A stretch of 64,000 bases of DNA from Nitrosopumilus sp. (GCA_965204345.1 OZ241981.1:1376001-1440000), one strand, 5' to 3'; numbered from the stretch's first letter, positions 9,280 through 51,133 are shown. The notes: generated by a model not told the origin, from the letters alone. Numbers and translations: made by a program.

Positions 9280-9385
9280 GTTGCAATGGCTTATGATCTA
9301 CCTACAAAGGATGAGCTAGAGGATCTGAAAACGGAAAATCCAATTCAATGTTGCAATGGCTTATGATCTACCTACAAAGGATGAG
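9280..9385 (-). CRISPR. CRISPR-like repeat-spacer-repeat unit: either an orphan mini-array or a duplication-flanked insertion
   Basis: Two identical 36-bp repeats (9280-9315, 9350-9385) around a 34-bp unique spacer; minus-strand repeat CTCATCCTTTGTAGGTAGATCATAAGCCATTGCAAC ends in ATTGCAAC; no cas genes in window. Confidence 0.45.
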
Positions 9386-9619
9386 AGTGGAGATGTTAAT
9401 GCCGGATATTACTATAACCAAGAATTTGATAAAATTCTAAAATATACTGAAGATAAGAGGATTTGTTATTCCATCAAAATATTCTACTGTAAGGTATTTC
9501 TTGAAAACTATTGGTTTTCATATAACCTGATCGTGAAAATTAATTATGAATAATATTATACCCAAGTCGTTATTATTAACAAATACTTGATCATAAGAGC
9601 TTTCAGGGAATGATGATAA

Positions 9620-10198
9620 ATGAATATTGAAAATATTACAAAGGAAGACATGGTATTGGCCTTAATCAAAAGGGCAACAGAGTATACTGGAACTAAAAAC
9701 AACAAAGGCGTACATGGAAAGAAAGCTCTTCAGAAAAGCCTCTATTTCCTAAATGATAAATTTCATCTATTTGGATTTAGATGGGGTGATTATGGCCCAT
9801 TAAGCGGTGAAATTCAGCAAATTGCTGAAGATCTTATTACTAGAGGTGATATTACAGTCACAAAAATCCCTACCAAAAAAGATGGTATCTTTACTCAACA
9901 CATGAAATATTCTATGAAAGATGATTCTTACTTTGAAGAGTTGGATATGCCAAAAGATTTGGATTCTGAATTAGATGAAATTGTCAAATTTACTGCGGGT
10001 AAAAGTCCTAGAGATTTAGAACTCCTTGCATCTGTTCATTTTTGGGCTATGCGACAACAAGATCTGTTAGATGAATATTCTATGAATTATGTTTTAGAAA
10101 AATTAACTGAGCTAAAACCTGATGCTGGCTTCAAACAGTCTGATGTTGAATATGCTATTGAAACTCTTGTAACCCATGAATATTTACCAAAAAACTAG
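9620..10198 (+). CDS. YwgA/Panacea (SocA, DUF4065)-like antitoxin-type protein
   Basis: KKALQKSLYFL...FRWGDYGPLSGEI and LELLASVHF motifs. Confidence 0.65.
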   Translation: MNIENITKEDMVLALIKRATEYTGTKNNKGVHGKKALQKSLYFLNDKFHLFGFRWGDYGPLSGEIQQIAEDLITRGDITVTKIPTKKDGIFTQHMKYSMKDDSYFEELDMPKDLDSELDEIVKFTAGKSPRDLELLASVHFWAMRQQDLLDEYSMNYVLEKLTELKPDAGFKQSDVEYAIETLVTHEYLPKN

Positions 10199-10398
10199 TT
10201 TTTATGATATTTTTCTAATTATGAATTGATCTCTGTTGGGTTTAATTTAATATCTGTTCATAATCAACAGATCTACAAATTTTTTTATTTTAACCAAAGG
10301 TCAGCCTGTGATTAATTAGGATCAATTGATCTCACTAAATTGTTAACAGAATTGATCGATACGATACTTGAGGATAGGGGAATAATAGTTACGTTACA

Positions 10399-11835: not shown

Positions 11836-11898
11836 TGAAATTTAATTCTAAGAAAGATTCACACCTATCTGCACCCACTTTACCCAAAATGACGGCTG

Positions 11899-11917
11899 AA
11901 TCCCCGTGAGCCATACC
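11899..11917 (+). mobile_element. Degenerate copy of tRNA-Val 3' end (att-like site 1)
   Basis: aatccccgtgagcc-atacc versus tRNA end aatccccgtgggcccatacc. Confidence 0.7.
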
Positions 11918-11996
11918 ATATAATGAGTATCAAATAAGACGCACATTATGCCATCATCCAATGGAATTAACCATTGAGAAAATCAATACGCGTACA

Positions 11997-12100
11997 GATC
12001 TTTATACTCGTTACAAAATTGATACATTGATACCAAGATTCATATTGATATTAACCAAGTAAGCAGGATCTTTATACTTGTTACAAATTGACACATTGAT
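11997..12100. repeat. Imperfect 35-bp direct repeat flanking a 35-bp unique insert
   Basis: gatctttatactcgttacaaaattgatacattgat (11997-12031) and gatctttatacttgttacaaattgacacattgat (12067-12100). Confidence 0.85.
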
Positions 12101-12422
12101 GGCAGGTGGCAGCATTCACTTTTACAAGCCTAGACAAACTATTGGAAGAAAGCAATTTCTTGAGAGGATAATTGACTGGCATGAGGAAGGAAATCATATA
12201 GTGAAAACTCTAACAGAATATGATCAAAACTACAGAAAAAAAATTTGTAGTAAATGTACAGAAGAACAACAAAAGAAACGTAATTGTCTAAAATTAGACA
12301 TGTACACATCAGAAGGAATTCAACTAAAACATTGCAGTCACATGAATAATGCCCGTGTAAGAAAACATAAGCAGCTAATTAGAAATCATATACATCTACA
12401 CCCTTCGCTTCAAATTATCTAG
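12078..12422 (+). CDS. Small basic Cys/His-containing hypothetical protein
   Basis: CSKC...C...HCSH, possible Zn site; start may be the ATG at 12099. Confidence 0.6.
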   Translation: MLQIDTLMAGGSIHFYKPRQTIGRKQFLERIIDWHEEGNHIVKTLTEYDQNYRKKICSKCTEEQQKKRNCLKLDMYTSEGIQLKHCSHMNNARVRKHKQLIRNHIHLHPSLQII

Positions 12423-13639: not shown

Positions 13640-13655
13640 AAAAAGATCTTAATAC

Positions 13656-13862: not shown

Positions 13863-14115
13863 AATTTTCTGATCCAATACACCAAAATGATCTTTAATTC
13901 GATCTTTTCTAAAACAAACATGTAGCCGAAGTCTAAATCTTGTTTAAAGTGAATGCACCATATGAGGCTACATCTGATGATGTAGAAAATTTATTGAATA
14001 TTGCGAATAAAATATTTAAAGAATTATCATGATTTAGGTGAGAAATTTAATTTTAATATATATTTTTTGTATTATCCAATAAAATCTATATTAATTTCAC
14101 CACGTCACTATATCT

Positions 14116-22055: not shown

Positions 22056-24749
22056 CTATGTTTTCACTTTGAATAAGGCAGCTTCACCTTCTCTAATGAC
22101 TAATTGCAATTGAGGATTATCCTCAAAGAGGGCTATTCGTTCAGAAGTACTTATGTGAAGAGCTGGAAATACTGGTAGAAGATGCTGTCGTGCCGCTTGT
22201 TGTCTGTTTTGGGGATCACCGCCAGTAATTAACACATATTCAATACCATACTTGTCCAATATTTCCATCATTTTCATGTCTCCGGGATGGTGTAATACAA
22301 GGTTAGCCTCATATGCTCTCTCTTTTAGAAATGTATCATCTGGCACAACATTGGTGCTTATTCTTTTCCACATTTCTCTGTTATTAGTTATATCAAATAT
22401 CTTTATTGATGAAAGCCACATTCCTTCAGTAGTTCTATCCTCAAGGATGGTTGTATTTGAATCAAGATTGTCATTCATCCAACCCATAACTTTTAATTCA
22501 TTGCTTGTAGGTAAATATCCTAGCAAACCATCTTTATACTCGTATGAAATATGAGTATCAAGACTTGGAATTAGTGCAATAAAAACCAACGAGCAAATCA
22601 CTATGGACAAGACTGATTTTGAACGTAATGAAATTTCGCGTTTGTTAAACCTAGTTGCAAGTTTATCAAAAATATCAACCCCTGCTAAAATTATTCCTAT
22701 TTGAGAGATGATAGCTCCTAGTAAAACAAGTCTGTCAGGATACATAAACCAGAAAAGATTCTCATAAATTACTTTATTTGATATTGTTCCAAACACTAGG
22801 GAAAACATTACAATCAAAAATAAACTAAACTCTCGATTGGATTTAAACAACCAAGTTGCAGAAAGAACCCCCCCTAGTAATAAAATAAAATAAGGAAAAT
22901 ATATAGAATCTATGTTGTATATGTCCATCTCCTCTAGAAAGATCCACCAAAAGTCGACCCTAGCACCATGTTCCTGAATCAATTCATCTGCAAAATAAAC
23001 CAGTGATGCGCCTGATGTTACTACCAAAATAATTAACGCCAATCGTAAAGAAGTAAGCATATAGTTTTTTATCTTAAATTTCCCGACTCGCAGTCCATTT
23101 GTTTTGGAGTTTATGGGGGATTTTAAGAGTATTAATTTAATAATTATAAACAAAACAAAGGGAACGATCATGATAGTATATGTGATAAATATTACAACTG
23201 ACAATAGCGAATAAATAATAAAATTAGAATTATTTTTATTATTAATAACTATGCTGATAAAAAGCAAAAGTATGCAAGTAAATGTAGCAAATACAAAAGT
23301 GCCCCCTTCTAATGGAGTAAGTAGTACATCATCAAATAGTATAAAATAACCTACTTCATTTCCTGGAATAAAAAACAATGCTCCAAATGCAATGCTTGCC
23401 AAGTAATACGATTTGGTTTTTTTGTATATTATTGAAAAACAGATGGGCGGCAAGAGTGCAACAATTGTTGCTGTGACGGCATATTGGGATATTGGCAGCA
23501 TGACGTTTGTAATCAAAGAAAAAAATGCAGTCAAAGCATGAAATCCCTGAGGATAAACTGTCATTCCATATGGCAAATCAAAAAATGGCCAATTATTGTT
23601 AAACACACTCGTATGATACATTATAAATTGCGAAGCGTGACCATGGTATTGCGGATCATGAATCGGCGGCCAGCTCATATTTTCTGCAATTATAAAAAAG
23701 TGAGTCAGTGACAGAATTATGAGTATGCCTGCAATCAGATTTGGAAGAACTTTTTCATTTTTAATTTCAGACAGAATTTTAGCTCTGTCTCTGAAAATCA
23801 AGTAAGAGCCAACCATCATAAACGAAAAGAAGGCTGTCAGAACAGTAGTCTGTGTAAAGTGAAGCATTGCCAGAAAAATCGCCAAAAGAATCAGCAATAC
23901 CAAGCCAAAGGCAGAGTACAGGGAAAAATTAATTACAAATCCAAAATTCAGCTTGTATCGGATAATTTTTAATAGAAAATACCCCATAATAACTGAAGAC
24001 GACAAATAAACAATCATGGATGTCAGTATCTCGTTTTTAAAATTCGACCTGTCTGAACCTATTTTGCTGTCAAATAATCCAGGCACTACCTCTGCATTTG
24101 CAATGTTCAGGCGCTGTGCTAGCTGTGCGTGATATTCTACATCAAATAATCCAGGCACTACCTCTGCATCTGTAATGAGCGTGGTCTGGGAATAAGAGTC
24201 CCCTCCGTTTACAAATGTAATTCTAAGAGACTTGACATTGCCAGGATCAAAGCCAGGTTTATTTTGAACGTAATTGGAGGGATCTACAATAACTTTTGCC
24301 CAAGTGCCATCTTCTAAACCAAACCACTGTGGCAAATTCCAAAAAGGACGCTGTATATCATTTGCATCAACCATGATCAAAAATGCATTAGCCCTCCATG
24401 CTTCAGGAGTACTTTTATTTATTCCAGCCACATTTTCAAGATTCATCCAAAATCGTAATCCTTGGCCCGTAGACAGATCCACAGGCTTGGAAAAACGGCA
24501 CTCAAGAACTGCTGTTTCTGTGGCATCACTGCTGGAAAAATAACTATAGGTAAAATCGCTATCATCATCATCATCATCACTATTCATATTCAGAGATTTG
24601 TCCAAAAAACTAGACTCTGAATCCCACGTACATTTATTCTCACTGTCAGACTCGAAAACATAAAAATCATGAAGATTTTCGGCAAATACAATTGATGGCA
24701 ACGCACATAATACCAACAAAACAAGTGCTATCCCACTAACAAGAAACAA
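22056..24749 (-). CDS. Multi-TM GT-C-like glycosyltransferase with N-terminal carbohydrate-binding-like domain, copy 1 (carries a 24-aa insertion)
   Basis: WPPxxDPQYH and YPQGFH loop motifs, more than 12 TM helices, C-terminal W..NLDSNTTIL-D / LDKYGIEYVL domain. Confidence 0.7.
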   Translation of the reverse strand: MFLVSGIALVLLVLCALPSIVFAENLHDFYVFESDSENKCTWDSESSFLDKSLNMNSDDDDDDSDFTYSYFSSSDATETAVLECRFSKPVDLSTGQGLRFWMNLENVAGINKSTPEAWRANAFLIMVDANDIQRPFWNLPQWFGLEDGTWAKVIVDPSNYVQNKPGFDPGNVKSLRITFVNGGDSYSQTTLITDAEVVPGLFDVEYHAQLAQRLNIANAEVVPGLFDSKIGSDRSNFKNEILTSMIVYLSSSVIMGYFLLKIIRYKLNFGFVINFSLYSAFGLVLLILLAIFLAMLHFTQTTVLTAFFSFMMVGSYLIFRDRAKILSEIKNEKVLPNLIAGILIILSLTHFFIIAENMSWPPIHDPQYHGHASQFIMYHTSVFNNNWPFFDLPYGMTVYPQGFHALTAFFSLITNVMLPISQYAVTATIVALLPPICFSIIYKKTKSYYLASIAFGALFFIPGNEVGYFILFDDVLLTPLEGGTFVFATFTCILLLFISIVINNKNNSNFIIYSLLSVVIFITYTIMIVPFVLFIIIKLILLKSPINSKTNGLRVGKFKIKNYMLTSLRLALIILVVTSGASLVYFADELIQEHGARVDFWWIFLEEMDIYNIDSIYFPYFILLLGGVLSATWLFKSNREFSLFLIVMFSLVFGTISNKVIYENLFWFMYPDRLVLLGAIISQIGIILAGVDIFDKLATRFNKREISLRSKSVLSIVICSLVFIALIPSLDTHISYEYKDGLLGYLPTSNELKVMGWMNDNLDSNTTILEDRTTEGMWLSSIKIFDITNNREMWKRISTNVVPDDTFLKERAYEANLVLHHPGDMKMMEILDKYGIEYVLITGGDPQNRQQAARQHLLPVFPALHISTSERIALFEDNPQLQLVIREGEAALFKVKT

Positions 24750-25843: not shown

Positions 25844-26058
25844 GCCTTCCTCCTCCTCCTCTTTATCTTTATCATCATCGTCTTTATCATGCCTACCTCT
25901 TGAGTCTCGCGTAAAAACTATCACCTTGTGTTTCTCTGCGAGTCTGCCATCTGCTTTTTTTCCAATAATGCAGTCTGCCCTTGTTCCGATTATTTTTCCA
26001 TCTCTGGGAGTCTGCCAGCTAATTCTTTTCCAATAAAGCTGGTGCTGCCCCCAATTAT
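25844..26058 (-). pseudogene. 5' fragment of the NAD-dependent epimerase gene at 58817-59851, trapped between two inverted IS copies
   Basis: Close match to about 59715-59840, plus a 68-bp duplication-insertion. Confidence 0.85.
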
Positions 26059-27152: not shown

Positions 27153-29771
27153 TTGTTTCTTGTTAGTGGGATAGCACTTGTTTTGTTGGTATTATGTGCG
27201 TTGCCATCAATTGTATTTGCCGAAAATCTTCATGATTTTTATGTTTTCGAGTCTGACAGTGAGAATAAATGTACGTGGGATTCAGAGTCTAGTTTTTTGG
27301 ACAAATCTCTGAATATGAATAGTGATGATGATGATGATGATAGCGATTTTACCTATAGTTATTTTTCCAGCAGTGATGCCACAGAAACAGCAGTTCTTGA
27401 GTGCCGTTTTTCCAAGCCTGTGGATCTGTCTACGGGCCAAGGATTACGATTTTGGATGAATCTTGAAAATGTGGCTGGAATAAATAAAAGTACTCCTGAA
27501 GCATGGAGGGCTAATGCATTTTTGATCATGGTTGATGCAAATGATATACAGCGTCTTTTTTGGAATTTGCCACAGTGGTTTGGTTTAGAAGATGGCACTT
27601 GGGCAAAAGTTATTGTAGATCCCTCCAATTACGTTCAAAATAAACCTGGCTTTGATCCTGGCAATGTCAAGTCTCTTAGAATTATATTTGTAAACGGAGG
27701 GGACTCTTATTCCCAGACCACGCTCATTACAGATGCAGAGGTAGTGCCTGAATTATTTGACAGCAAAATAGGTTCAGACAGGTCGAATTTTAAAAACGAG
27801 ATACTGACATCCATGATTGTTTATTTGTCGTCTTCAGTTATTATGGGGTATTTTCTATTAAAAATTATCCGATACAAGCTGAATTTTGGATTTGTAATTA
27901 ATTTTTCCCTGTACTCTGCCTTTGGCTTGGTATTGCTGATTCTTTTGGCGATTTTTCTGGCAATGCTTCACTTTACACAGACTACTGTTCTGACAGCCTT
28001 CTTTTCGTTTATGATGGTTGGCTCTTACTTGATTTTCAGAGACAGAGCTAAAATTCTGTCTGAAATTAAAAATGAAAAAGTTCTTCCAAATCTGATTGCA
28101 GGCATACTCATAATTCTGTCACTGACTCACTTTTTTATAATTGCAGAAAATATGAGCTGGCCGCCTGTTTTTGATCCGCAATACCATGGTCACGCTTCGC
28201 AATTTATAATGTATCATACGAGTGTGTTTAACAATAATTGGCCATTTTTTGATTTGCCATATGGAATGACAGTTTATCCTCAGGGATTTCATGCTTTGAC
28301 TGCATTTTTTTCTTTGATTACAAACGTCATGCTGCCAATATCCCAATATGCCGTCACAGCAACAATTGTTGCACTCTTGCCGCCCATCTGTTTTTCAATA
28401 ATATACAAAAAAACCAAATCGTATTACTTGGCAAGCATTGCATTTGGAGCATTGTTTTTTATTCCAGGAAATGAAGTAGGTTATTTTGTAATTTCTCATG
28501 ATGTACTACTTACTCCATTATCTACAGGAACTTTTGTATTTGCTACATTTACTTGCATACTTTTGCTTTTTATCAGCATAGTTATTAATAATAAAAATAA
28601 TTCTAATTTTATTATTTATTCGCTATTGTCAGTTGTAATATTTATCACATATACTATCATGATCGTTCCCTTTGTTTTGTTTATAATTATTAAATTAATA
28701 CTCTTAAAATCCCCCATAAACTCCAAAACAAATGGACTGCGAGTCGGGAAATTTAAGATAAAAAACTATATGCTTATTTTACGATTGGCGTTAATTATTT
28801 TGGTAGTAACATCAGGCGCATCACTGGTTTATTTTGCAGATGAATTGCAGAAGATAAATAATATTCCGATCACCACTTACTGGCTATTATTTGAGAATAT
28901 GGACATATACAACATAGATTCTATATATTTTCCTTATTTTATTTTATTACTAGGGGGGGTTCTTTCTGCAACTTGGTTGTTTAAATCCAATCGAGAGTTT
29001 AGTTTATTTTTGATTGTAATGTTTTCCCTAGTGTTTGGAACAATATCAAATAAAGTAATTTATGAGAATCTTTTCTGGTTTATGTATCCTGACAGACTTG
29101 TTTTACTAGGAGCTATCATCTCTCAAATAGGAATAATTTTAGCAGGGGTTGATATTTTTGATAAACTTGCAACTAGGTTTAACAAACGCGAAATTTCATT
29201 ACGTTCAAAATCAGTCTTGTCCATAGCGATTTGCTCGTTGGTTTTTATTGCACTAACTCCAAGTCTTGATACTCATATTTCATACGAGTATGACGATGAT
29301 TTGCTAGGATATTTACCTACAAGCAATGAATTAAAAGTTATGGGTTGGATGAATGACAATCTTGATTCAAATACAACCATCCTTCAGGATAGAACTGGTG
29401 AAGGAATGTGGCTTTCATCAATAAAGATATTTGATATAACTAATAACAGAGAAATGTGGAGAAGAATACACAGTAGTGTTGTGTTAGATGATACATTTCT
29501 AAAAGAGAGAGCATATGAGGCTAACCTTGTATTACACCATCCCGGAGACATGAAAATGATGGAAATATTGGACAAGTATGGTATTGAATATGTGTTGATT
29601 ACTGGCGGTAATCCGAAAGACAGACAACGATCGGATGCGTACCCGCTTCTACCAGTATTTCCAGCTCTTCACATAAGTACTTCTGAACGAATAGCCCTCT
29701 TTGAGGATAATCCTCAATTGCAATTAGTCATTAGAGAAGGTGAAGCTGCCTTATTCAAAGTGAAAACATAG
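27153..29771 (+). CDS. GT-C-like membrane glycosyltransferase, copy 2
   Basis: Near-identical to copy 1 except for short divergent loop patches. Confidence 0.7.
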   Translation: MFLVSGIALVLLVLCALPSIVFAENLHDFYVFESDSENKCTWDSESSFLDKSLNMNSDDDDDDSDFTYSYFSSSDATETAVLECRFSKPVDLSTGQGLRFWMNLENVAGINKSTPEAWRANAFLIMVDANDIQRLFWNLPQWFGLEDGTWAKVIVDPSNYVQNKPGFDPGNVKSLRIIFVNGGDSYSQTTLITDAEVVPELFDSKIGSDRSNFKNEILTSMIVYLSSSVIMGYFLLKIIRYKLNFGFVINFSLYSAFGLVLLILLAIFLAMLHFTQTTVLTAFFSFMMVGSYLIFRDRAKILSEIKNEKVLPNLIAGILIILSLTHFFIIAENMSWPPVFDPQYHGHASQFIMYHTSVFNNNWPFFDLPYGMTVYPQGFHALTAFFSLITNVMLPISQYAVTATIVALLPPICFSIIYKKTKSYYLASIAFGALFFIPGNEVGYFVISHDVLLTPLSTGTFVFATFTCILLLFISIVINNKNNSNFIIYSLLSVVIFITYTIMIVPFVLFIIIKLILLKSPINSKTNGLRVGKFKIKNYMLILRLALIILVVTSGASLVYFADELQKINNIPITTYWLLFENMDIYNIDSIYFPYFILLLGGVLSATWLFKSNREFSLFLIVMFSLVFGTISNKVIYENLFWFMYPDRLVLLGAIISQIGIILAGVDIFDKLATRFNKREISLRSKSVLSIAICSLVFIALTPSLDTHISYEYDDDLLGYLPTSNELKVMGWMNDNLDSNTTILQDRTGEGMWLSSIKIFDITNNREMWRRIHSSVVLDDTFLKERAYEANLVLHHPGDMKMMEILDKYGIEYVLITGGNPKDRQRSDAYPLLPVFPALHISTSERIALFEDNPQLQLVIREGEAALFKVKT

Positions 29772-29869
29772 ACACAGCAGTAAATGAAATGTAATGTATG
29801 ATGCGTGGTCAAAATGCTCTGAAAGATTTATTCAGTGAAAACATAGACAGCAGTACGCGCTGCCAATAA

Positions 29870-31171
29870 TGTATTATATGAAAATCATATCCGCTAGTCA
29901 TTCATGTCTGCCTCCATCCATTTTTGGTTGCTTTTTCTGATCGCATCAGGAACCTTTTTGGCCTTAAATGCCATCAGAGGCACCTGGCAGTTCTCTATGT
30001 CCAGAGAAAAATGCAGTCTATCCTTATTGTAAAAATCGATGAACTCCCCCATCGTCTTAAAGTGTACAATCTCATCCTCAAGTGTCCTGAAGAATCTCTC
30101 AATCTTGCCGTTGGCCTGCGGGTGGTGGTGGTGGTGGTGGTGGTGGTGGTGGTGGTGGTGGTGGTGGTGGTGGTGGTGGTGGTGGTGGTGGTGGTGGTGG
30201 TGGTGGTGGTGGTGGTGGTGGTGGTGGTGGTGGTGGTGGTGGTGGTGGTGGTGGTGGTGGTGGTGGTGGTGGTGGTGGTGGTGGTGGTGGTGGTGGTGGT
30301 GGTGGTGGTGGTGGTGGGAGCGTGAGTCAATCAGGGCAATACTCCTCTCCAGAGCTTCTTCCTCAAACATGGTGAGCCTCTATCCCTTGGCAGGTATACC
30401 GCGGTTTCGGGATGTGAACTGGGCGCCGTTGTCTGAAAGTATCTGGCCTGGCGTGCCAAATGACTTGATAGTCTTGCGCAAAACGGCTACAGTGTTCTGG
30501 CTTGTGGCACTATCAAATATCCCGAATCCCGTTATGCATCTTGATGCATCATCCAGATATGCCACAAGTTGCAATCCTTTTAGGCGTGGATCCTTCATTT
30601 TGGCCAGTCCATATCCCACATTGCATTGGAATACAGTCACTCGTATCTGACGTACTTTCTCTTCTTGGATTTTTCAGGAGACAGCTTAACTAGTCCATTG
30701 GATTTCATTATTTGGTAATGCTGTATGGTATCTTATATGAGATGACTTTCTGAGGTGGCGAGCTGTGTGCACTACTGCATGAATATCATCATATGTCTTA
30801 AGAACACGACGTTTAAGTGGTGACGGCATCGTCTAGGGCTTCGAGCCTGCATGAATATCATCATATGTCTTAAGAACACGACGTACATCCTCAGGTGATG
30901 GTATCTTTCTGGGTCTTTCTGCCTTTCTGTGGGGGAGTATTCTTCCGGTCTTGCGGTAGGCTGCCCATATGCGTCTGACGTGTCTTGCGCTGACCTGCAT
31001 GGTCTGGGCCAGAACAGATGCTGCACCTGTGCCCTTTTGATGCTGCCGTATGATGTATCTAATCTGAACTTCTTTTAGTCTGGTTCTCTTCATTATTCGT
31101 GATCTGTATATGCGGTAATAATCCCTTGCCTGAAGCCTGAGCTTAGGCGGACATAATTTTCGTACAATAGA
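29870..31171 (-). mobile_element. IS481-family element, variant B copy 1, pseudogenised, with (CAC)65 expansion
   Basis: TIRs at 29870 and 31171; transposase fragments; 72-bp duplication-insertion at 30775-30884. Confidence 0.9.
30121..30315. repeat. (GGT)65 microsatellite
   Basis: 195 bp of perfect trinucleotide repeat. Confidence 0.95.
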
Positions 31172-33638: not shown

Positions 33639-34769
33639 TGTATTATATGAAAATCATATCCGCTAGTCATTCATGTCTGCCTCCATCCATTTTTGGTTGC
33701 TTTTTCTGATCGCATCAGGAACCTTTTTGGCCTTAAATGCCATCAGAGGCACCTGGCAGTTCTCTATGTCCAGAGAAAAATGCAGTCTATCCTTATTGTA
33801 AAAATCGATGAACTCCCCCATCGTCTTAAAGTGTACAATCTCATCCTCAAGTGTCCTGAAGAATCTCTCAATCTTGCCGTTGGCCTGCGGGTGGTGGTGG
33901 TGGTGGTGGTGGTGGGAGCGTGAGTCAATCAGGGCAATACTCCTCTCCAGAGCTTCTTCCTCAAACATGGTGAGCCTCTATCCCTTGGCAGGTATACCGC
34001 GGTTTCGGGATGTGAACTGGGCGCCGTTGTCTGAAAGTATCTGGCCTGGCGTGCCAAATGACTTGATAGTCTTGCGCAAAACGGCTACAGTGTTCTGGCT
34101 TGTGGCACTATCAAATATCCCGAATCCCGTTATGCATCTTGATGCATCATCCAGATATGCCACAAGTTGCAATCCTTTTAGGCGTGGATCCTTCATTTTG
34201 GCCAGTCCATATCCCACATTGCATTGGAATACAGTCACTCGTATCTGACGTACTTTCTCTTCTTGGATTTTTCAGGAGACAGCTTAACTAGTCCATTGGA
34301 TTTCATTATTTGGTAATGCTGTATGGTATCTTATATGAGATGACTTTCTGAGGTGGCGAGCTGTGTGCACTACTGCATGAATATCATCATATGTCTTAAG
34401 AACACGACGTTTAAGTGGTGACGGCATCGTCTAGGGCTTCGAGCCTGCATGAATATCATCATATGTCTTAAGAACACGACGTACATCCTCAGGTGATGGT
34501 ATCTTTCTGGGTCTTTCTGCCTTTCTGTGGGGGAGTATTCTTCCGGTCTTGCGGTAGGCTGCCCATATGCGTCTGACGTGTCTTGCGCTGACCTGCATGG
34601 TCTGGGCCAGAACAGATGCTGCACCTGTGCCCTTTTGATGCTGCCGTATGATGTATCTAATCTGAACTTCTTTTAGTCTGGTTCTCTTCATTATTCGTGA
34701 TCTGTATATGCGGTAATAATCCCTTGCCTGAAGCCTGAGCTTAGGCGGACATAATTTTCGTACAATAGA
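33639..34769 (-). mobile_element. IS481-family element, variant B copy 2, (CAC)8
   Basis: TIRs; same sequence as B1 apart from microsatellite length. Confidence 0.9.
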
Positions 34770-37236: not shown

Positions 37237-38367
37237 TGTATTATATGAAAATCATATCCGCTAGTCATTCATGTCTGCCTCCATCCATTTTTGGTTGCTT
37301 TTTCTGATCGCATCAGGAACCTTTTTGGCCTTAAATGCCATCAGAGGCACCTGGCAGTTCTCTATGTCCAGAGAAAAATGCAGTCTATCCTTATTGTAAA
37401 AATCGATGAACTCCCCCATCGTCTTAAAGTGTACAATCTCATCCTCAAGTGTCCTGAAGAATCTCTCAATCTTGCCGTTGGCCTGCGGGTGGTGGTGGTG
37501 GTGGTGGTGGTGGGAGCGTGAGTCAATCAGGGCAATACTCCTCTCCAGAGCTTCTTCCTCAAACATGGTGAGCCTCTATCCCTTGGCAGGTATACCGCGG
37601 TTTCGGGATGTGAACTGGGCGCCGTTGTCTGAAAGTATCTGGCCTGGCGTGCCAAATGACTTGATAGTCTTGCGCAAAACGGCTACAGTGTTCTGGCTTG
37701 TGGCACTATCAAATATCCCGAATCCCGTTATGCATCTTGATGCATCATCCAGATATGCCACAAGTTGCAATCCTTTTAGGCGTGGATCCTTCATTTTGGC
37801 CAGTCCATATCCCACATTGCATTGGAATACAGTCACTCGTATCTGACGTACTTTCTCTTCTTGGATTTTTCAGGAGACAGCTTAACTAGTCCATTGGATT
37901 TCATTATTTGGTAATGCTGTATGGTATCTTATATGAGATGACTTTCTGAGGTGGCGAGCTGTGTGCACTACTGCATGAATATCATCATATGTCTTAAGAA
38001 CACGACGTTTAAGTGGTGACGGCATCGTCTAGGGCTTCGAGCCTGCATGAATATCATCATATGTCTTAAGAACACGACGTACATCCTCAGGTGATGGTAT
38101 CTTTCTGGGTCTTTCTGCCTTTCTGTGGGGGAGTATTCTTCCGGTCTTGCGGTAGGCTGCCCATATGCGTCTGACGTGTCTTGCGCTGACCTGCATGGTC
38201 TGGGCCAGAACAGATGCTGCACCTGTGCCCTTTTGATGCTGCCGTATGATGTATCTAATCTGAACTTCTTTTAGTCTGGTTCTCTTCATTATTCGTGATC
38301 TGTATATGCGGTAATAATCCCTTGCCTGAAGCCTGAGCTTAGGCGGACATAATTTTCGTACAATAGA
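37237..38367 (-). mobile_element. IS481-family element, variant B copy 3
   Basis: TIRs; inserted upstream of GT4; an IS-free homologous region lies at about 58650-58730 (minus strand). Confidence 0.9.
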
Positions 38368-38458: not shown

Positions 38459-39700
38459 ATGAATGTTTTAATCATAGCACAATATTTCCCACCAGACGTA
38501 GGTGGTGGAATAACTAGAATAAGCAATGCAGCTAAGGCATTAAAGAACCAAGGCAACAACGTAACTGTCGTATCTGCGTTTCCACACTATCCAAAGGGAG
38601 ACATTCCAAAAAAATACAGAGGTAAGATAATTGCAAAAGAACAGATTGACGGCATAACAATATACAGAACATGTATTCCCAAATTATCTCATTCGTCTAT
38701 TTTAAAACGCATAATAATTCATCTTTCATTTTGTCTCTCATCACTGTTGGTAATGCAGAAATTTCGCGATACTGACATAATTTTTGCATCAAACCCGAGC
38801 TTTTTTGTTTCATTTCCTGCTGCTGTGTACAGTTTTTTTCTGAAAAAAAAATATATTCTTAATGTCGATGACATGTGGCCAGAAGTATGGTATGACTTGG
38901 GATATGTCAAGTCGAGGATCTTCAGAAAGATTTTAGACCATATTGCCCAAAAATCATATGACAATTCGTGTGCAGTGGTGCCACTAAGTAGGGGTTATGT
39001 AGACGTATTGGAGTCAAAATATAAGGTCAAAAGAGAAAAAATTACAGTTATTGAGCATGGCGTAGATACGGAAAAATTCAGGACTAATGAAAACAAAAGG
39101 GATGAGCAACACCAAGACGGACCAAGTGGAAGGAAAAAAATTCTAATGTATGCCGGCGCACTAGGTATCGGATATGATTTTGATACAATACTGCAGGCTG
39201 CCAAGATTTTAGAGCAGTATCCGATACAGTTCATAATCAGGGGTGAGGGAAACCTGGAGGATTATCTAAAACAGCAGGTTCAGCAGCAGAAAATTACAAA
39301 TGTCAAAATAGATACAAAATTTGTCGAATTTGAAAAATATAACGAGATACTAAACAGCGCGGATATTTTTTTATTGCCCCTAAGTCCGGTCAGGGGATTT
39401 GACTATGGATTGATTACAAAGACACTGGACTATCAAATGATTGGAAGGCCAATCTTTTGTATCTCAAAGGGGGAATCAAAACGCTATGTAAATGAGACAA
39501 AAAGTGGCATTGTAACATCATCAAGGGATCCCAAGACTGTTTCGGATTTGATTTTGAAATTGGTAAAAGACGAGAAGCTTGCAGAGGAATTGGGTCAAAA
39601 CGGAAGAAGGTACGTTCTAGAGAACCTGACAATAGAGATGATTGGCAAGCGATTGATGAAGGTGATAAACGGCTGTATGGAGGAGGAGGAAAAAAAATAA
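38459..39700 (+). CDS. GT4 glycosyltransferase (WbuB-like), copy A
   Basis: AQYFPPDVGGG, FPHYP, VDDMWPE, YAGALG, GRPI; ATG at 38459. Confidence 0.9.
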   Translation: MNVLIIAQYFPPDVGGGITRISNAAKALKNQGNNVTVVSAFPHYPKGDIPKKYRGKIIAKEQIDGITIYRTCIPKLSHSSILKRIIIHLSFCLSSLLVMQKFRDTDIIFASNPSFFVSFPAAVYSFFLKKKYILNVDDMWPEVWYDLGYVKSRIFRKILDHIAQKSYDNSCAVVPLSRGYVDVLESKYKVKREKITVIEHGVDTEKFRTNENKRDEQHQDGPSGRKKILMYAGALGIGYDFDTILQAAKILEQYPIQFIIRGEGNLEDYLKQQVQQQKITNVKIDTKFVEFEKYNEILNSADIFLLPLSPVRGFDYGLITKTLDYQMIGRPIFCISKGESKRYVNETKSGIVTSSRDPKTVSDLILKLVKDEKLAEELGQNGRRYVLENLTIEMIGKRLMKVINGCMEEEEKK

Positions 39701-40022
39701 TAGCGGGTGTTTAGATGTGAGGAATCCCAATCCAGGATTTGGATGAGATCAAGCATGGGGGGGGAGAAGGAAGAGAGACATAGAGAGAAATAATAGCGGG
39801 TGTTTAGATGTGCATGTCCCAGAATGATTTTGGATTGTACAGCATTGGATGATGATGATGTAAATACATACACATACATACATACATAAATACATACATA
39901 CACATACACACAAAAAAAGTTCGTGCAATCAAAATAACACCATAAACATCATTCTGCTTGGGCTTCAGACACAATGAGGAGAATGCCTTTTTTATAAAAA
40001 ATCAGGAAAGAGATATTAACTT

Positions 40023-41573: not shown

Positions 41574-43733
41574 TTGTATTTCTCTAAATTTAAGATGCTT
41601 TCAGCCGGCTTTTTTCTACGAATACCTTCCTCGTCGTCATCCCCATCCTCACGTTTTCAAGGTGTCTGTAACGAATTTTTGCTAACATATTTCCTGTTTT
41701 CGGCATACGCATTACTTTACATGGTCCTGACTGCAACCATATTAAAGATAAAAATTTTTCCAACCATCGACAGAATAACATACGTGGATGCAGTAGTCAG
41801 ATGGACGATAACTGATTCGCTGCAATACGACATGCTGTTTGCATCCATAATTTTTGCAACGGCATTGCTCTTGTCGTTTAGAAAAAAGATATCAGTTTCT
41901 TTCTCAGTCATGCTACTGGTACCGGTCATCTCTGCGTCGTTTTTTGATTTTTTTCTCGAAGTTTCTCAAATGGTTTTCATCTTCTCAATGCCGACAGCAC
42001 TCACATTATTCTTGGTTGGTTATTACTTGTCTAACTACAGCCAGAAAAAGAAGAAGAAGAGCTCATCTAGCTTGGAGAAACCAGAAGAGGTGGCAACGGG
42101 TCACAGCTTCAGGCATGCGTTGTCTGTATTTTTTTCAGTTATTCTACTAGTTGAATTGGCAGCGGCACTCAGATGGGTTCTAACGCCTGTGGTTTTGGAA
42201 TTGCCCAAAAACCACTGGAGTTGGAACATAGTGTCTTTGGAAAACAGCGTGTTTTATGTTCTGGGCCTGATGGTTCCGTCCATCTTTTTGCTTTGCATCC
42301 TGTCTTTTTTGATAAAACCGTTTGTACAAAAAATATATTCAGGCATCAGCAGCGGCGGCGGCAACAACGGCAAAGACGGCAGCGGCACTACCACTGACAC
42401 TGCCATCACGCAGCAGCAGCAGCCTCAAAGACGACGACATTCAGATGATCTTGATGGCAAAAGCCCAACTGCAAACGGCCAAAAATCATTGAAAATAACA
42501 AATTTAAAAAAATACAGCCCCGTCATCTTGCTCTCAAAAATTGATTTTGATGGCAGTACGCGAAACGTTGCCTTGATGTTGTTGCTGGCAATGATATCGT
42601 CAGTTTTGATATCATTGTTTCCATACGCAGTATCCATAGTAGATGCGGACAAGTCATTTGGCACTGACGTCAAAAACTACACTGGCTGGCTTTGGCCGAT
42701 TAATTCGGCTGCCGGCCTTGAGAGCATGCTCCGTCTGGCATTCTTTGAAATAAACGAGGGTTCCAGACCCCTGACGCTGCTTTCAATATATTTTATCTCC
42801 CATATCTCCCAGTACGAGCAGGAGATTGTTTTAAAATATTTGCCAACAGTGCTGGGTCCGCTACTAGTAGCATCCACATATTTCTTTACGAGGGCTGCCT
42901 ATCCTCAGAACAGGAAGATTGCAGTGATCACATCGGTGATCACGTCAGTATCACCGCAGATAGTAATCGGGTTTTATGCGGCATTTTACGCAAATTGGTT
43001 TGCCTTGATTTTTATTTTAATCTCCTCAACGTTTCTAATCAAGTGCGTACGAAGGCAGGATCATCATCATCATCATCACGATTTTAGAAACATGACACTG
43101 TTTGGCGGCACCCTGCTGTTGGTGTTATTTTTTCATTCGTATGCATGGAGTTATTTTATGGCAACAGTTATGCTATACCTCATATGGTCACTGGCAATAA
43201 AAAAACGCAGAAAAGAGTCGGCAAAAATTTGTATCATTTTGGTGGCAGTGACATTATCCATACTTTCAGTGGATCTGTCCAGATCATATTTTGGAAACAC
43301 ATCAGATAGTTTTGAGAAAGACTTGCTGATAGCAGATTCGTCAATTAGTTATTACGAGTTTGTAAACAGATGGGCCAACTTTAATAACACTTTTTTTGTC
43401 TTTCTTGGGGGGTTTCTGACAAATTTTATGCTGCTAGGCCTGCTATTTGTATGGACCCTGCAAACAAAGCACTCGAGTCATTCAGACAGATTCTTCCTTT
43501 CGATGTTGCTGGTATCAGTGCTGCCAATCTTATTTGGGGATTTCAACGTACAGTCCAGAATATTTTACAACATTCCGTTCCACATTCCTGCAAGCGTTAT
43601 GTTGTACAAAATATACCAGAGCAACCAGACAAGGCCATTTGGCAAAATACTGGTCGTTGTGACAATATTGTTTCAGTTCAACTATGCATTAAGGGGGATG
43701 TCAAACATGAATTTTGCATCACCGATACAATGA
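41574..43733 (+). CDS. Multi-TM membrane protein, probable GT-C-like glycosyltransferase, copy A
   Basis: More than 15 TM helices; FGTDVKNY and GSRPLTL loop motifs; located in the glycan locus. Confidence 0.6.
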   Translation: MYFSKFKMLSAGFFLRIPSSSSSPSSRFQGVCNEFLLTYFLFSAYALLYMVLTATILKIKIFPTIDRITYVDAVVRWTITDSLQYDMLFASIIFATALLLSFRKKISVSFSVMLLVPVISASFFDFFLEVSQMVFIFSMPTALTLFLVGYYLSNYSQKKKKKSSSSLEKPEEVATGHSFRHALSVFFSVILLVELAAALRWVLTPVVLELPKNHWSWNIVSLENSVFYVLGLMVPSIFLLCILSFLIKPFVQKIYSGISSGGGNNGKDGSGTTTDTAITQQQQPQRRRHSDDLDGKSPTANGQKSLKITNLKKYSPVILLSKIDFDGSTRNVALMLLLAMISSVLISLFPYAVSIVDADKSFGTDVKNYTGWLWPINSAAGLESMLRLAFFEINEGSRPLTLLSIYFISHISQYEQEIVLKYLPTVLGPLLVASTYFFTRAAYPQNRKIAVITSVITSVSPQIVIGFYAAFYANWFALIFILISSTFLIKCVRRQDHHHHHHDFRNMTLFGGTLLLVLFFHSYAWSYFMATVMLYLIWSLAIKKRRKESAKICIILVAVTLSILSVDLSRSYFGNTSDSFEKDLLIADSSISYYEFVNRWANFNNTFFVFLGGFLTNFMLLGLLFVWTLQTKHSSHSDRFFLSMLLVSVLPILFGDFNVQSRIFYNIPFHIPASVMLYKIYQSNQTRPFGKILVVVTILFQFNYALRGMSNMNFASPIQ

Positions 43734-43931
43734 AAACCCCATGATGCAACCAGAATTATACCAGCCTCTATTTTGTCAAACATGAATTTTGCATCACCGA
43801 TACAATGAAAACGGCAGGACACGGGAAGAAGGCTAAAAAGACTTAAAAATGAAAAACAGGCTACGGTACTTGCTTGACAAAGTCTCAAATATCTGTCTGT
43901 TGTTGCAAAATCCTGACATCTGTGTAATGCC

Positions 43932-47512: not shown

Positions 47513-47701
47513 GGAGCACTAAGAGAATGATGACTGACTTGCATGTTATTTGGACAGGTATGATATATATACACACTGACTTGCTGGCTGACTTGGATAT
47601 TATTTGCACAAGTATGTCTGTGCCAGCCGGCTGCTATATGCATGCATGCATGCCGGCTGATTGCCTGACTGACATACGGCATTACATGCCGGACAACCTA
47701 T

Positions 47702-48775
47702 TTACGAATGCACGCTTGTCTTTCTTGTCCTAAAAAGCGTCTTCTTTTCGTCGATATAATTAATTGCATCCCATGAAAATGTCTTGCCTTTCTGCCAGCG
47801 TTCCCATCTCTGAATGTCCGCATTTACCATGATTTTAACCAAATCCTCAAACCTGGTTTTTGGCCTCCACCTAAGCTCCCTCTTGGCTTTGGATGAATCC
47901 CCCCTTAGCGTATCTACCTCAAGAATCCTATAAAACCGATCATCTGATTTTACGTATTTTTCCCATTTCAAATCAACATGTGAGAAGGCCAGCTCCACAA
48001 ACTCTCTTACCGTATGGGCCTCATTGGTAGAAATGACATAGTCATCCGGATTTTTTTGCTGCATTATTCTCCACATGCATTCGACGTATTCAGGCGCATA
48101 TCCCCAATCCCTTGATGCATCCAGGTTTCCAAGTACCAGTCTCTTCTGCAATCCCAGCTTGATTTTTGCAACGGCATTTGTAATCTTTCTTGTGACAAAC
48201 TCCAGTCCCCTCAACGGGGATTCGTGATTAAACAGTATTCCATTTGAGGCAAACATGTCATAGCCGTCACGGTACATTTTTGTTATCCAGTAACCGTACA
48301 GCTTTGCTGCGGCGTACGGACTCTGTGGTCTAAACGGGGTGTCCTCATTTTGGGGGGATTCCTCAACCCTGCCATACAGCTCACTTGAGGAGGCTTGATA
48401 AAACTTGATCTTCTTTTTGTCTGCTGCCCTCCTCACGCTTTCCAAGATTCTTGCAACTGCCAAACCAGAGTATTCCCCACTTGTTATTGGCTGATCAAAT
48501 GAGGATCCTACATAACTTTGGGCGGCCAGATGATACACTTCATCGGGGTTTGAAATTTTCAGCGACTCTGTTAATGATGAGACATCCACAAGGTCTGCCG
48601 GAATATAATTGATGCTCTCATCAATGCCCAGTGATATGAGCCTCCAAAAATTCGGCGTGGAGAGGCGCCTGAATGTTCCGTACACGTCATAATTTTTATT
48701 CAAGAGAAACCTTGCCAAATAGGCGCCATCCTGACCCGTTATCCCAGTTATTAGGGCGGATTTTTTTTTAGCCAT
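47702..48775 (-). CDS. gmd: GDP-mannose 4,6-dehydratase, copy B
   Basis: Identical translation to copy A. Confidence 0.95.
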   Translation of the reverse strand: MAKKKSALITGITGQDGAYLARFLLNKNYDVYGTFRRLSTPNFWRLISLGIDESINYIPADLVDVSSLTESLKISNPDEVYHLAAQSYVGSSFDQPITSGEYSGLAVARILESVRRAADKKKIKFYQASSSELYGRVEESPQNEDTPFRPQSPYAAAKLYGYWITKMYRDGYDMFASNGILFNHESPLRGLEFVTRKITNAVAKIKLGLQKRLVLGNLDASRDWGYAPEYVECMWRIMQQKNPDDYVISTNEAHTVREFVELAFSHVDLKWEKYVKSDDRFYRILEVDTLRGDSSKAKRELRWRPKTRFEDLVKIMVNADIQRWERWQKGKTFSWDAINYIDEKKTLFRTRKTSVHS

Positions 48776-48973
48776 GGCATTACACAGATGTCAGGATTTT
48801 GCAACAACAGACAGATATTTGAGACTTTGTCAAGCAAGTACCGTAGCCTGTTTTTCATTTTTAAGTCTTTTTAGCCTTCTTCCCGTGTCCTGCCGTTTTC
48901 ATTGTATCGGTGATGCAAAATTCATGTTTGACAAAATAGAGGCTGGTATAATTCTGGTTGCATCATGGGGTTT

Positions 48974-51133
48974 TCATTGTATCGGTGATGCAAAATTCAT
49001 GTTTGACATCCCCCTTAATGCATAGTTGAACTGAAACAATATTGTCACAACGACCAGTATTTTGCCAAATGGCCTTGTCTGGTTGCTCTGGTATATTTTG
49101 TACAACATAACGCTTGCAGGAATGTGGAACGGAATGTTGTAAAATATTCTGGACTGTACGTTGAAATCCCCAAATAAGATTGGCAGCACTGATACCAGCA
49201 ACATCGAAAGGAAGAATCTGTCTGAATGACTCGAGTGCTTTGTTTGCAGGGTCCATACAAATAGCAGGCCTAGCAGCATAAAATTTGTCAGAAACCCCCC
49301 AAGAAAGACAAAAAAAGTGTTATTAAAGTTGGCCCATCTGTTTACAAACTCGTAATAACTAATTGACGAATCTGCTATCAGCAAGTCTTTCTCAAAACTA
49401 TCTGATGTGTTTCCAAAATATGATCTGGACAGATCCACTGAAAGTATGGATAATGTCACTGCCACCAAAATGATACAAATTTTTGCCGACTCTTTTCTGC
49501 GTTTTTTTATTGCCAGTGACCATATGAGGTATAGCATAACTGTTGCCATAAAATAACTCCATGCATACGAATGAAAAAATAACACCAACAGCAGGGTGCC
49601 GCCAAACAGTGTCATGTTTCTAAAATCGTGATGATGATGATGATGATCCTGCCTTCGTACGCACTTGATTAGAAACGTTGAGGAGATTAAAATAAAAATC
49701 AAGGCAAACCAATTTGCGTAAAATGCCGCATAAAACCCGATTACTATCTGCGGTGATACTGACGTGATCACCGATGTGATCACTGCAATCTTCCTGTTCT
49801 GAGGATAGGCAGCCCTCGTAAAGAAATATGTGGATGCTACTAGTAGCGGACCCAGCACTGTTGGCAAATATTTTAAAACAATCTCCTGCTCGTACTGGGA
49901 GATATGGGAGATAAAATATATTGAAAGCAGCGTCAGGGGTCTGGAACCCTCGTTTATTTCAAAGAATGCCAGACGGAGCATGCTCTCAAGGCCGGCAGCC
50001 GAATTAATCGGCCAAAGCCAGCCAGTGTAGTTTTTGACGTCAGTGCCAAATGACTTGTCCGCATCTACTATGGATACTGCGTATGGAAACAATGATATCA
50101 AAACTGACGATATCATTGCCAGCAACAACATCAAGGCAACGTTTCGCGTACTGCCATCAAAATCAATTTTTGAGAGCAAGATGACGGGGCTGTATTTTTT
50201 TAAATTTGTTATTTTCAATGATTTTTGGCCGTTTGCAGTTGGGCTTTTGCCATCAAGATCATCTGAATGTCGTCGTCTTTGAGGCTGCTGCTGCTGCGTG
50301 ATGGCAGTGTCAGTGGTAGTGCCGCTGCCGTCTTTGCCGTTGTTGCCGCCGCCGCTGCTGATGCCTGAATATATTTTTTGTACAAACGGTTTTATCAAAA
50401 AAGACAGGATGCAAAGCAAAAAGATGGACGGAACCATCAGGCCCAGAACATAAAACACGCTGTTTTCCAAAGACACTATGTTCCAACTCCAGTGGTTTTT
50501 GGGCAATTCCAAAACCACAGGCGTTAGAACCCATCTGAGTGCCGCTGCCAATTCAACTAGTAGAATAACTGAAAAAAATACAGACAACGCATGCCTGAAG
50601 CTGTGACCCGTTGCCACCTCTTCTGGTTTCTCCAAGCTAGATGAGCTCTTCTTCTTCTTTTTCTGGCTGTAGTTAGACAAGTAATAACCAACCAAGAATA
50701 ATGTGAGTGCTGTCGGCATTGAGAAGATGAAAACCATTTGAGAAACTTCGAGAAAAAAATCAAAAAACGACGCAGAGATGACCGGTACCAGTAGCATGAC
50801 TGAGAAAGAAACTGATATCTTTTTTCTAAACGACAAGAGCAATGCCGTTGCAAAAATTATGGATGCAAACAGCATGTCGTATTGCAGCGAATCAGTTATC
50901 GTCCATCTGACTACTGCATCCACGTATGTTATTCTGTCGATGGTTGGAAAAATTTTTATCTTTAATATGGTTGCAGTCAGGACCATGTAAAGTAATGCGT
51001 ATGCCGAAAACAGGAAATATGTTAGCAAAAATTCGTTACAGACACCTTGAAAACGTGAGGATGGGGATGACGACGAGGAAGGTATTCGTAGAAAAAAGCC
51101 GGCTGAAAGCATCTTAAATTTAGAGAAATACAA
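48974..51133 (-). CDS. Multi-TM GT-C-like protein, copy B
   Basis: Identical translation to copy A. Confidence 0.6.
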   Translation of the reverse strand: MYFSKFKMLSAGFFLRIPSSSSSPSSRFQGVCNEFLLTYFLFSAYALLYMVLTATILKIKIFPTIDRITYVDAVVRWTITDSLQYDMLFASIIFATALLLSFRKKISVSFSVMLLVPVISASFFDFFLEVSQMVFIFSMPTALTLFLVGYYLSNYSQKKKKKSSSSLEKPEEVATGHSFRHALSVFFSVILLVELAAALRWVLTPVVLELPKNHWSWNIVSLENSVFYVLGLMVPSIFLLCILSFLIKPFVQKIYSGISSGGGNNGKDGSGTTTDTAITQQQQPQRRRHSDDLDGKSPTANGQKSLKITNLKKYSPVILLSKIDFDGSTRNVALMLLLAMISSVLISLFPYAVSIVDADKSFGTDVKNYTGWLWPINSAAGLESMLRLAFFEINEGSRPLTLLSIYFISHISQYEQEIVLKYLPTVLGPLLVASTYFFTRAAYPQNRKIAVITSVITSVSPQIVIGFYAAFYANWFALIFILISSTFLIKCVRRQDHHHHHHDFRNMTLFGGTLLLVLFFHSYAWSYFMATVMLYLIWSLAIKKRRKESAKICIILVAVTLSILSVDLSRSYFGNTSDSFEKDLLIADSSISYYEFVNRWANFNNTFFVFLGGFLTNFMLLGLLFVWTLQTKHSSHSDRFFLSMLLVSVLPILFGDFNVQSRIFYNIPFHIPASVMLYKIYQSNQTRPFGKILVVVTILFQFNYALRGMSNMNFASPIQ

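Follow-up and report, generated by a model that had tools for sequence, protein, structure and literature searches.

Probable natural off-target spacer integration, on a large scale, by a decaying type I-B-like CRISPR adaptation module in a Nitrosopumilus genome

A 64,000-nucleotide stretch of the genome of Nitrosopumilus sp. (GCA_965204345.1, OZ241981.1:1376001-1440000; hereafter the window) carries repeat-insert-repeat units in which about 36 bp of ordinary sequence is duplicated on either side of about 35 bp of unique DNA. The window corresponds to C1:1376001-1440000 of a 2.12-Mb assembly (G000) that has nine contigs and a G+C content of 38.7%, and we find 28 independent dispersed units of this kind in the assembly as a whole. 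These units are very probably natural, large-scale off-target spacer integrations by the organism's own, decaying type I-B-like Cas1-Cas2(-Cas4) module. This proposal builds on a preliminary description of the window, which had reported eight such sites and ascribed them to a promiscuous or domesticated Cas1-type integrase.

Results

Genome-wide census of the units

Direct repeats with at least 23 matches in 26 positions were collected from the entire genome at all spacings between 40 and 130 bp, tandem and low-complexity cases being dropped. A sharp genome-wide peak is seen, with 56 of the 119 filtered repeats having a spacing of 68-76 bp. With looser criteria, 57 repeats fall at 68-75 bp, compared to 0-10 (mostly 0-6) in any other 4-bp bin. 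Moreover, no spaced repeats at all are present in three shuffles of the main contig that preserve local composition, as against 392 raw segments in the real sequence, and these empty shuffles, together with the spacing peak in the real sequence, exclude chance. The peak near 36+35 bp and above shuffled background that the preliminary description had expected to see genome-wide is therefore present. Defining a size class by a duplication of 30-44 bp, an insert of 28-45 bp and a spacing of 66-76 bp yields 45 units, or 36 unique ones when nine paralog copies are subtracted; setting aside five units in the CRISPR array, two coding tandem repeats and one nested locus leaves the 28 independent dispersed units. 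Their duplications have a median length of 36 bp (33-42) and their inserts one of 35 bp (30-41), with a median spacing of 71.5 bp, and the two copies of the duplicated segment differ by no mismatch in 19 units, by one in four, by two in four and by four in a single unit. The inserts are mutually unrelated, as are the duplicated segments, the longest word in common among the 28 units being 9 nt. The lengths agree with those of CRISPR arrays: array spacers have 32-36 bp in this genome and 34-36 nt in 62 of the 65 spacers of a related genome (G094), and the median duplication agrees with a repeat length of 34-37 nt here and 36 nt in G094.

Two types of mobile element were considered as the origin of the units and rejected. 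For an insertion sequence (IS) or a miniature inverted-repeat transposable element (MITE), the grounds are that the inserts have no shared sequence and that the duplication is 36 bp long, terminal inverted repeats not having been scored separately. For a casposon, they are that the inserts have 30-41 bp and are non-coding, and that the sole Cas1 match in the genome adjoins an array as well as cas2 and cas4. A casposon is kilobases long, has terminal inverted repeats and duplicates some 14-15 bp of its target; its Cas1-family integrase likewise makes target-site duplications, but the inserts described here have about 35 bp and no shared ends, and are flanked by 36-bp duplications.

Empty sites and support from other assemblies

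Eight of the 28 units have empty paralog sites in which both flanks are joined across exactly one copy of the duplicated segment, and three further sites in the window, at positions 25933, 29753 and 39689, likewise have single-copy paralogs. The five window sites for which an uninserted paralogous allele had been claimed are all upheld. Thus, the unit at 24070 has nine empty paralog sites and one filled copy at C1:2017386, that at 25933 has two paralogs with a single 39-bp copy, that at 29753 has nine empty paralogs and one filled, that at 30775 has seven empty paralog sites and three filled copies, and the site at 39689 has two single-copy paralogs. The unit at 11997 has no paralog in the genome, and no empty copy of the unit at 43699 is present there. 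No orthologous empty sites for 9280 and 11997 were found in other species, this region being poorly conserved; the best match from another species near these two units has 86% identity over 800 bp and starts just past the unit. The small contigs C6-C9 repeat parts of C1, with C6 corresponding to a locus at 250 kb (C1:250509-250700, discussed below), C8 to a unit at 905 kb, and C7 and C9 to empty versions of C1 units. These four contigs may be strain variants or unresolved repeats.

Contigs from public sequencing runs were mapped to positions 8500-26500 of the window, one run (X1) being perhaps the source sample and the others (X5, X6 and X7) coming from three other studies, which span 2010 to 2024 and two of which are labelled sponge metagenomes. 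This evidence consists of contigs, in which rare alleles are not visible. A contig covering 11176-12380, and hence the unit at 11997, is found in X6 with no differences, and an X7 contig omits exactly 72 bp at the unit at 24070, as is the case in the empty paralog copies. In X1, X5 and X7, one contig each ends at 9309 and the next listed piece, which is seen in X1 only, starts at 9356, perhaps because the 36-nt exact repeat at this unit exceeds the word length of the assembler. In addition, the insert of the unit at 30775 was recovered between the two sides of the joint in X1, X5 and X7.

These data bear on whether the units are artefacts of assembly or sequencing, an idea that might be entertained because the duplications have lengths near common k-mer sizes and some of the small contigs duplicate parts of the main contig. 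We give it almost no credence. The contigs of three further studies fit the units, paralogs exist both with and without a unit, and the copies have diverged in the older units; moreover, units within genes exhibit an in-frame bias and some inserts are exact copies of distant genes, as discussed in the following sections.

Units inside genes

Nine units are located where the uninserted sequence is an open reading frame (ORF) of at least 150 aa. In eight of these nine the length of the unit is divisible by 3, and the frame remains open in seven, with a gain of 22-25 residues, the exceptions being a 70-bp unit and a unit in cas1. Relative to the periods of the G094 array, of which 20 of 65 are divisible by 3, finding eight divisible units among nine has P = 5e-4. 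Such an in-frame bias is what would be expected from purifying selection acting on accidents.

A CRISPR-Cas locus with an interrupted cas1

The genome contains a single Cas1 match (C1:1887727-1888668, minus strand, 230 bits), which has two TAA codons inside. Downstream of cas1 lie cas2 and cas4, and cas4 is followed by an array (C1:1886277-1886676) whose six repeats recur with periods of 68-72 and whose repeat core, read from the leader, is CTGAATAGAATTCTAAAATTATAAAGATTGAAAC. A cas1-cas2-cas4 module is therefore present next to an array whose repeats and spacers match the duplications and inserts of the units in length, as the preliminary description had anticipated; of the integrase that it proposed, the Cas1-type part stands, in the form of this one module, and the suggestion that it is domesticated is not supported, what remains being a type I-B-like remnant without effectors. 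One of the dispersed units, at C1:1888134 (38+34, with identical copies), splits cas1 and adds 72 bp with two stop codons (TAA), so that translation through it reads ...VIKIKPYQKHYA LQ*DLI*SSSII VIKIKPYQKHYA... (asterisks, stops). Aligning the intact Cas1 of G094, which is 58% identical, across this unit places a gap exactly there. The alignment also puts the glutamate of a conserved G-x-E-G motif just downstream of the unit, and we take this glutamate to be a catalytic residue by analogy with Escherichia coli Cas1.

The array itself has an unusual leader-proximal unit. Its duplication spans 40 nt, made up of 10 nt from the end of the older spacer and the first 30 nt of the repeat, so that the seven repeat nucleotides beside the leader remain single; the 32-nt insert matches C1:1209418-1209449 at 100%. 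Precision and register have been lost in the array as in the dispersed units.

When G094 proteins are used as queries, cas1 (58%), cas2 (64%) and cas4 (49%) are found at full length in this genome, with cas6b being represented only by residues 92-214 at C1:1884292-1884660, beyond the array and on the strand opposite to cas1-cas2-cas4. The same queries give no match for cas8b, cas7 or cas5, and for cas3 only a weak, generic helicase match, the NCBIfam core model TIGR01587 remaining below its cut-off; Pfam probes of this genome for the Cas7, RAMP, Cas6 and Cas5 families also return nothing. Since cas1, cas2 and cas4 are matched and the effectors are not, the adaptation module appears to have been kept without its interference genes. 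The cas6b remnant adjoins a 563-aa tyrosine-recombinase gene (C1:1882556-1884247). It seems that either a rearrangement or an integrating element has interrupted the cas operon.

The dispersed units are not canonical CRISPR arrays, each being two copies of a unique sequence. Three or more repeat copies are present only in the array at C1:1886277-1886676, which has six, and in the nested locus at C1:250509-250700, which has three. In the latter, the segment duplicated by a second event was displaced by 16 nt, so that the locus now has three repeat copies and two inserts, and a paralog at C1:253451-253566 has only the first event (42+32), to which C1:250509-250700 adds 52+27. The nested locus looks like a growing neo-CRISPR locus. 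Its expansion might also be seen as support for the idea that the units have a function, as mini-arrays of one spacer each or as regulatory elements, and are under selection, as might the fact that many units are kept in frame inside genes. Nevertheless, this explanation is very unlikely. Every unit has a different "repeat", and there is consequently no common crRNA handle or processing site; cas6b is truncated and the effector genes are not found. Moreover, one unit inactivates cas1, and the in-frame bias needs nothing beyond the purifying selection invoked above.

Source of the inserts

Five of the 28 dispersed inserts are full-length copies of distant sequences in housekeeping genes of the same genome with 0-2 mismatches (94-100% identity), as is the leader-proximal spacer of the array. 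The insert of the unit at 9280 corresponds to C1:174508-174541 (33/34) within a tryptophan synthase alpha gene, and the remaining sources lie in an NFACT-family gene, a UPF0182 gene and two ORFs that have no Pfam family; an additional partial match, of 31 nt at 90%, is located in a PcrB-family gene. The preliminary description had raised the possibility that the inserts are local sequence copied by slippage. They are, however, mutually unrelated, and the five that can be traced were copied from distant genes of this genome and not from nearby DNA.

Three window inserts were compared with viral contigs, and none gave an exact match, exact matches being the only type considered. The insert in cas1 had no exact matches in metagenome contigs, from which records of this genome were possibly excluded. 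The 65 spacers of G094 have no informative protospacer in 1.2 Mb of G094, 0.8 Mb of a second relative (G127), this genome or small loci, the only matches beyond an array copy in locus L017 being two of 18 and 21 nt, and as a result no protospacer-adjacent motif (PAM) can be derived from them.

The genome has a single orc1/cdc6 gene (C1:1237154-1237414), which is located at the maximum of the cumulative GC skew. Three of the six full-length protospacers, or four of seven when the partial match is included, lie within 52 kb of this gene, and another two, at a distance of about 975 kb, are nearly diametrically opposed to it and close to the skew minimum. After correction for the post-hoc choice of window, the result is not significant for the six (P = 0.13) and marginal for the seven (P = 0.015), and the origin bias of the self protospacers is suggestive only. 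A 26-bp direct repeat with a spacing of 62 (C1:1236292-1236380) adjoins orc1/cdc6, and a similar one is present in G127. This repeat is probably an origin recognition box pair marking the replication origin.

Target-site preference

We compared the first and last 8 nt of each duplication with the ends of the canonical repeat, orienting each site by its better fit and treating random sites by the same procedure. The duplications agree with the repeat at a mean of 6.86 of 16 positions, compared to 5.35 ± 0.30 for the controls, and none of 2000 control sets is as high. Similarity to the repeat ends was used because expectation-maximisation mis-oriented some of the sites, for example that at 9280; an orientation-free model gives an information content of 6.73, against 4.32 ± 0.37. 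The TT and AC of ATTGAAAC, at the leader-distal end, carry the signal, with a weak contribution from the leader-proximal end, and the targets show no mimicry of the interior, mid-repeat motifs. CRISPR-like termini had been noted in the preliminary description, and a weak but significant resemblance is seen: read on the minus strand, the duplication of the unit at 9280 ends in ATTGCAAC, which is identical to the repeat end ATTGAAAC at 7/8 positions. Finally, the unit at C1:486377 duplicates the final 23 nt of a tRNA-Ser gene together with 15 nt beyond it, leaving the tRNA intact, and the T-loop at this site mimics the repeat end.

Related genomes

The relative G094 has the same Cas1 type in an intact system, with an operon in the order of a 553-aa first gene without a Pfam family (which we take as cas8b), cas7, cas5, cas3, cas6b, cas1, cas2 and cas4. 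Its array has 66 repeats, the 36-nt repeat being clearly homologous to that described here, with spacers of 34-36 nt and periods of 70 (10 cases), 71 (33), 72 (19) and 73-75 (3). Five class units are present outside the array in 1.2 Mb of this genome when a coding tandem repeat is dropped, at positions 43914, 61661, 381767, 1536512 and 1589657 of its contig C1 (35-37 + 34-36 bp). One of these dispersed units ends in GGATTGAAAC, and the unit just past the array has an insert that is a 100% copy of G094 C1:1222702-1222735. The second relative, G127, which provides the best DNA match to the part of the window that was searched, has one class unit in 0.8 Mb; its Cas1 genes are taken to be of another type because a C-terminal query from the Cas1 of this genome missed them. 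A third, G007, is without a Cas1 match and has no class units in 0.4 Mb, compared to 28 in the 2.12 Mb examined here. Given that these samples are partial and that the four genomes are kin, the unit counts are a trend and not a test. Other genomes of the genus encode longer Cas1 homologs, of 409-425 aa, which, judging by their length and by the literature, may be casposases.

Units of the window

A repeat scan of the window, followed by reading of the sequence at each site, shows that all eight of the sites first reported are present, although the dimensions of two had to be altered, 25933 being 39+29 and not 36+32, and the site given as 39677 being 28+65 and not 37+35. The rate of one unit per 8 kb is likewise correct for the window only and does not extend to the genome, where 28 strict units are found in 2.12 Mb. 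All coordinates in this section are positions in the window, and the units are assigned no strand.

Unit 1 (9280..9385) has identical 36-bp copies at 9280-9315 and 9350-9385, with no mismatches, around a 34-bp insert (9316-9349); its duplication includes the ATG of a 65-aa ORF, and the gene start is therefore preserved in the second copy. Unit 2 (11997..12100) has copies at 11997-12031 and 12067-12100 (35/34 bp, differing by two mismatches and an indel) on either side of a 35-bp insert. Between these two units, a segment of about 75 bp (10301-10376) has 85-99% identity to sequence in most genomes of the genus and is most likely a tRNA gene. Unit 3 (24070..24177) has 36-bp copies with two mismatches (24070-24105 and 24142-24177) around a 36-bp insert, and lies in frame within a DUF6541 gene that encodes 897 aa, compared to 872 aa in the uninserted paralog, the ORF remaining open. 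Two units are older. Unit 4 (25933..26039) has 39-bp copies at 25933-25971 and 26001-26039 that are 85% alike, with six mismatches, around a 29-bp insert, and unit 5 (29753..29857) has copies of about 30 bp with indels (29753-29782 and 29828-29857) around an insert of about 45 bp, giving a spacing of 75. Unit 6 (30775..30884) has identical 38-bp copies at 30775-30812 and 30847-30884 around a 34-bp insert, and has been multiplied along with the tandem triplication of a 3598-bp segment, its second and third copies being at 34373..34482 and 37971..38080. The atypical insertion at 39689..39809, with 28-bp copies (39689-39716 and 39782-39809) around 65 bp and a spacing of 93, is an insertion with target duplication yet falls outside the 36+35 size class. 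Lastly, unit 7 (43699..43812) has identical 39-bp copies at 43699-43737 and 43774-43812 around a 36-bp insert; its duplication terminates in ATGAAAAC, and an inverted second copy of the unit (48895..49008) is borne by a large inverted duplication.

In gene content, the window is a region of surface-polysaccharide genes with many paralogs. The three tandem 3598-bp copies, in the stretch 30700-41500, carry GHMP-kinase, SIS and HAD genes. A GGT microsatellite (30121-30317) extends to 65.7 copies in the first of the three tandem units, as against 8.7 in the other two (33890-33915 and 37488-37513). The large inverted duplication extends over 41574-51133, with mirrored 719-aa ORFs and GDP-mannose dehydratase genes flanking an epimerase gene, and both copies of the unit at 43699 sit within it. 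A 495-bp tandem repeat with 4.8 copies at 99% identity and ATT/GTT-rich ends is found at 52303-54659. Outside the window, C1:2006000-2034000, near the contig end, has about nine kilobase-sized copies of a segment at a spacing of 3609 bp, with DUF6541-type genes.

Discussion

In the mechanism that we propose, the Cas1-Cas2(-Cas4) module would capture prespacers of about 35 bp and join their two 3' ends to the two strands of a target at points about 36 bp apart, which is one repeat length, after which gap repair would leave 36 bp duplicated on either side of the insert. The normal target would be the leader-proximal repeat alone; here, chromosomal sites that loosely mimic the repeat ends would also have been used. 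We suggest that spacers derived from self genes were not lethal, and persisted, because the interference genes had gone. Selection would then have retained intergenic insertions and those that lengthen an ORF in frame by 22-25 residues, and one event, in cas1 itself, most likely ended the process. What the sequence shows directly is the geometry, the empty sites, the derivation of some inserts from self DNA, the presence and interruption of cas1, and the in-frame bias.

Several observations weigh against this proposal. The units are clustered, with 13 of 27 neighbour gaps being no longer than 20 kb when 6.5 ± 2 are expected and with seven independent events in the window, compared to an expectation of 0.97, and such clustering is not predicted by a model of off-target integration by itself. 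Some insertions deviate from the geometry, among them that of 28+65 (window 39689); others divide a total of 70-79 bp in other ways, namely 52+27 (C1:250568), 30+45 (window 29753) and several of 23-27 + 43-50 bp, the last with totals of 70-75 bp. The likeness of the targets to the repeat is weak and confined to a few terminal positions. A source was not found for 23 of the 28 inserts. No shared PAM-like flank, for which the preliminary description had suggested looking, is seen beside the six self protospacers despite the presence of cas4, the orientation of most units being uncertain. The control genomes were sampled in part, at 0.4-1.2 Mb each. Finally, cas1 is now broken, and we infer its role as the catalyst, like the order of events, from sequence.

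It might be that some other process adds filler at staggered breaks, such as repair with templated insertions, template switching or an unrecognised integrase, and that the resemblance to CRISPR geometry is coincidental. The size-deviant units, the failure to find a PAM, the weak likeness of the targets to the repeat and the concentration of events in few regions would all fit such a process. We nevertheless regard it as unlikely, given that the peak at 68-76 bp coincides with the period of the array both here and in G094, that the newest unit of the array shares the features of the dispersed units, and that unit counts track this Cas1 type in four genomes. In addition, apart from the one Cas1 match no candidate enzyme was identified in the genome, although other integrase families were not systematically searched.

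With off-target integration by the Cas1-Cas2(-Cas4) module as the favored explanation of the units, we lean, with rather less assurance, toward a broader reading taken as a whole. According to this, the type I-B-like module of the genus habitually integrates outside arrays and leaves a legible fossil record there, as the units in a relative with an intact system also show, became a mutagen in this sponge-associated genome after the loss of interference, and eventually inactivated its own cas1. Prespacers would have been drawn from the organism's own chromosome, with a possible bias to the origin and the opposite pole; at least seven ORFs would have been extended in frame and a neo-CRISPR locus seeded. 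If this is true, the genome would exemplify, in nature, both the birth of an array and a mutator role for CRISPR adaptation.

The nearest precedent is off-target integration with formation of neo-CRISPR loci, which has reportedly been observed by Nivala, Shipman and Church (Nature Microbiology, 2018) on over-expression of the type I-E Cas1-Cas2 of E. coli. That work reportedly likewise involves spacer-length inserts, repeat-length duplications and targets at non-array sites that resemble the leader and repeat, and an initial insertion can become the start of an expanding array, as seen here at C1:250509. The E. coli events, however, are reported to be products of over-expression in the laboratory, whereas those described here are natural, apparently fixed in the population and number dozens, and involve an archaeal type I-B-like system with a 36-bp repeat; moreover, in-frame protein insertions and a hit in the organism's own cas1 set this genome apart. 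Isolated or orphan arrays are said to have been found by repeat detection in a study by Shmakov and colleagues (CRISPR Journal, 2020). While such isolated arrays are detected by their repeats, nearly all of the units in this genome have a single spacer and a unique "repeat", and because array finders miss units of this type the phenomenon may be under-counted in genomes generally.

According to a preprint that cites Nivala 2018, natural evidence for such events is only circumstantial and comes from two other species. A paper summarising Shmakov et al. (PMC13142298) gives off-target acquisition as one of the proposed ways in which arrays came to lie away from cas genes. Cas1-Cas2 alone integrates off-target in vitro into repeat-like non-CRISPR DNA, as shown for the proteins of Pyrococcus furiosus (PMC6698737) and, without HU, of Thermotoga profunda (PMC13769266), and the fidelity of integration depends on repeat and leader motifs or on host factors (PMC6698737, PMC13769266). 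These were plasmid assays in vitro, whereas the units reported here are a chromosomal, evolutionary record. In the type I-B system of Haloarcula hispanica, repeat motifs act as rulers of the duplication length and their disturbance leads to aberrant sizes (PMC4872114). Such rulers fit the 33-42 bp spread and the off-register array event seen here; unlike the H. hispanica case, the repeat in this genome has 36 bp and the targets show no interior likeness to it. In the literature that we searched, mostly as abstracts and without supplements, no description was found of this phenomenon in archaea associated with sponges, of dozens of events in any natural genome, of in-frame protein insertions by spacer integration or of a cas1 broken in this way. 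The type of event is known; its natural form and its scale, as reported here, are new.

Off-target integration has so far been known from over-expression experiments and in vitro assays. This genome would offer about 30 fixed natural events for which the exact junctions and empty alleles, and in some cases also the origin of the spacer, can be given. Such a collection bears on the birth of CRISPR arrays, on the cost of an adaptation module after the loss of interference, on the target features that are read by an archaeal integrase with a 36-bp repeat, and on whether spacer integration can create in-frame protein insertions. The unit in cas1, moreover, would represent a simple way for an adaptation module to switch itself off.

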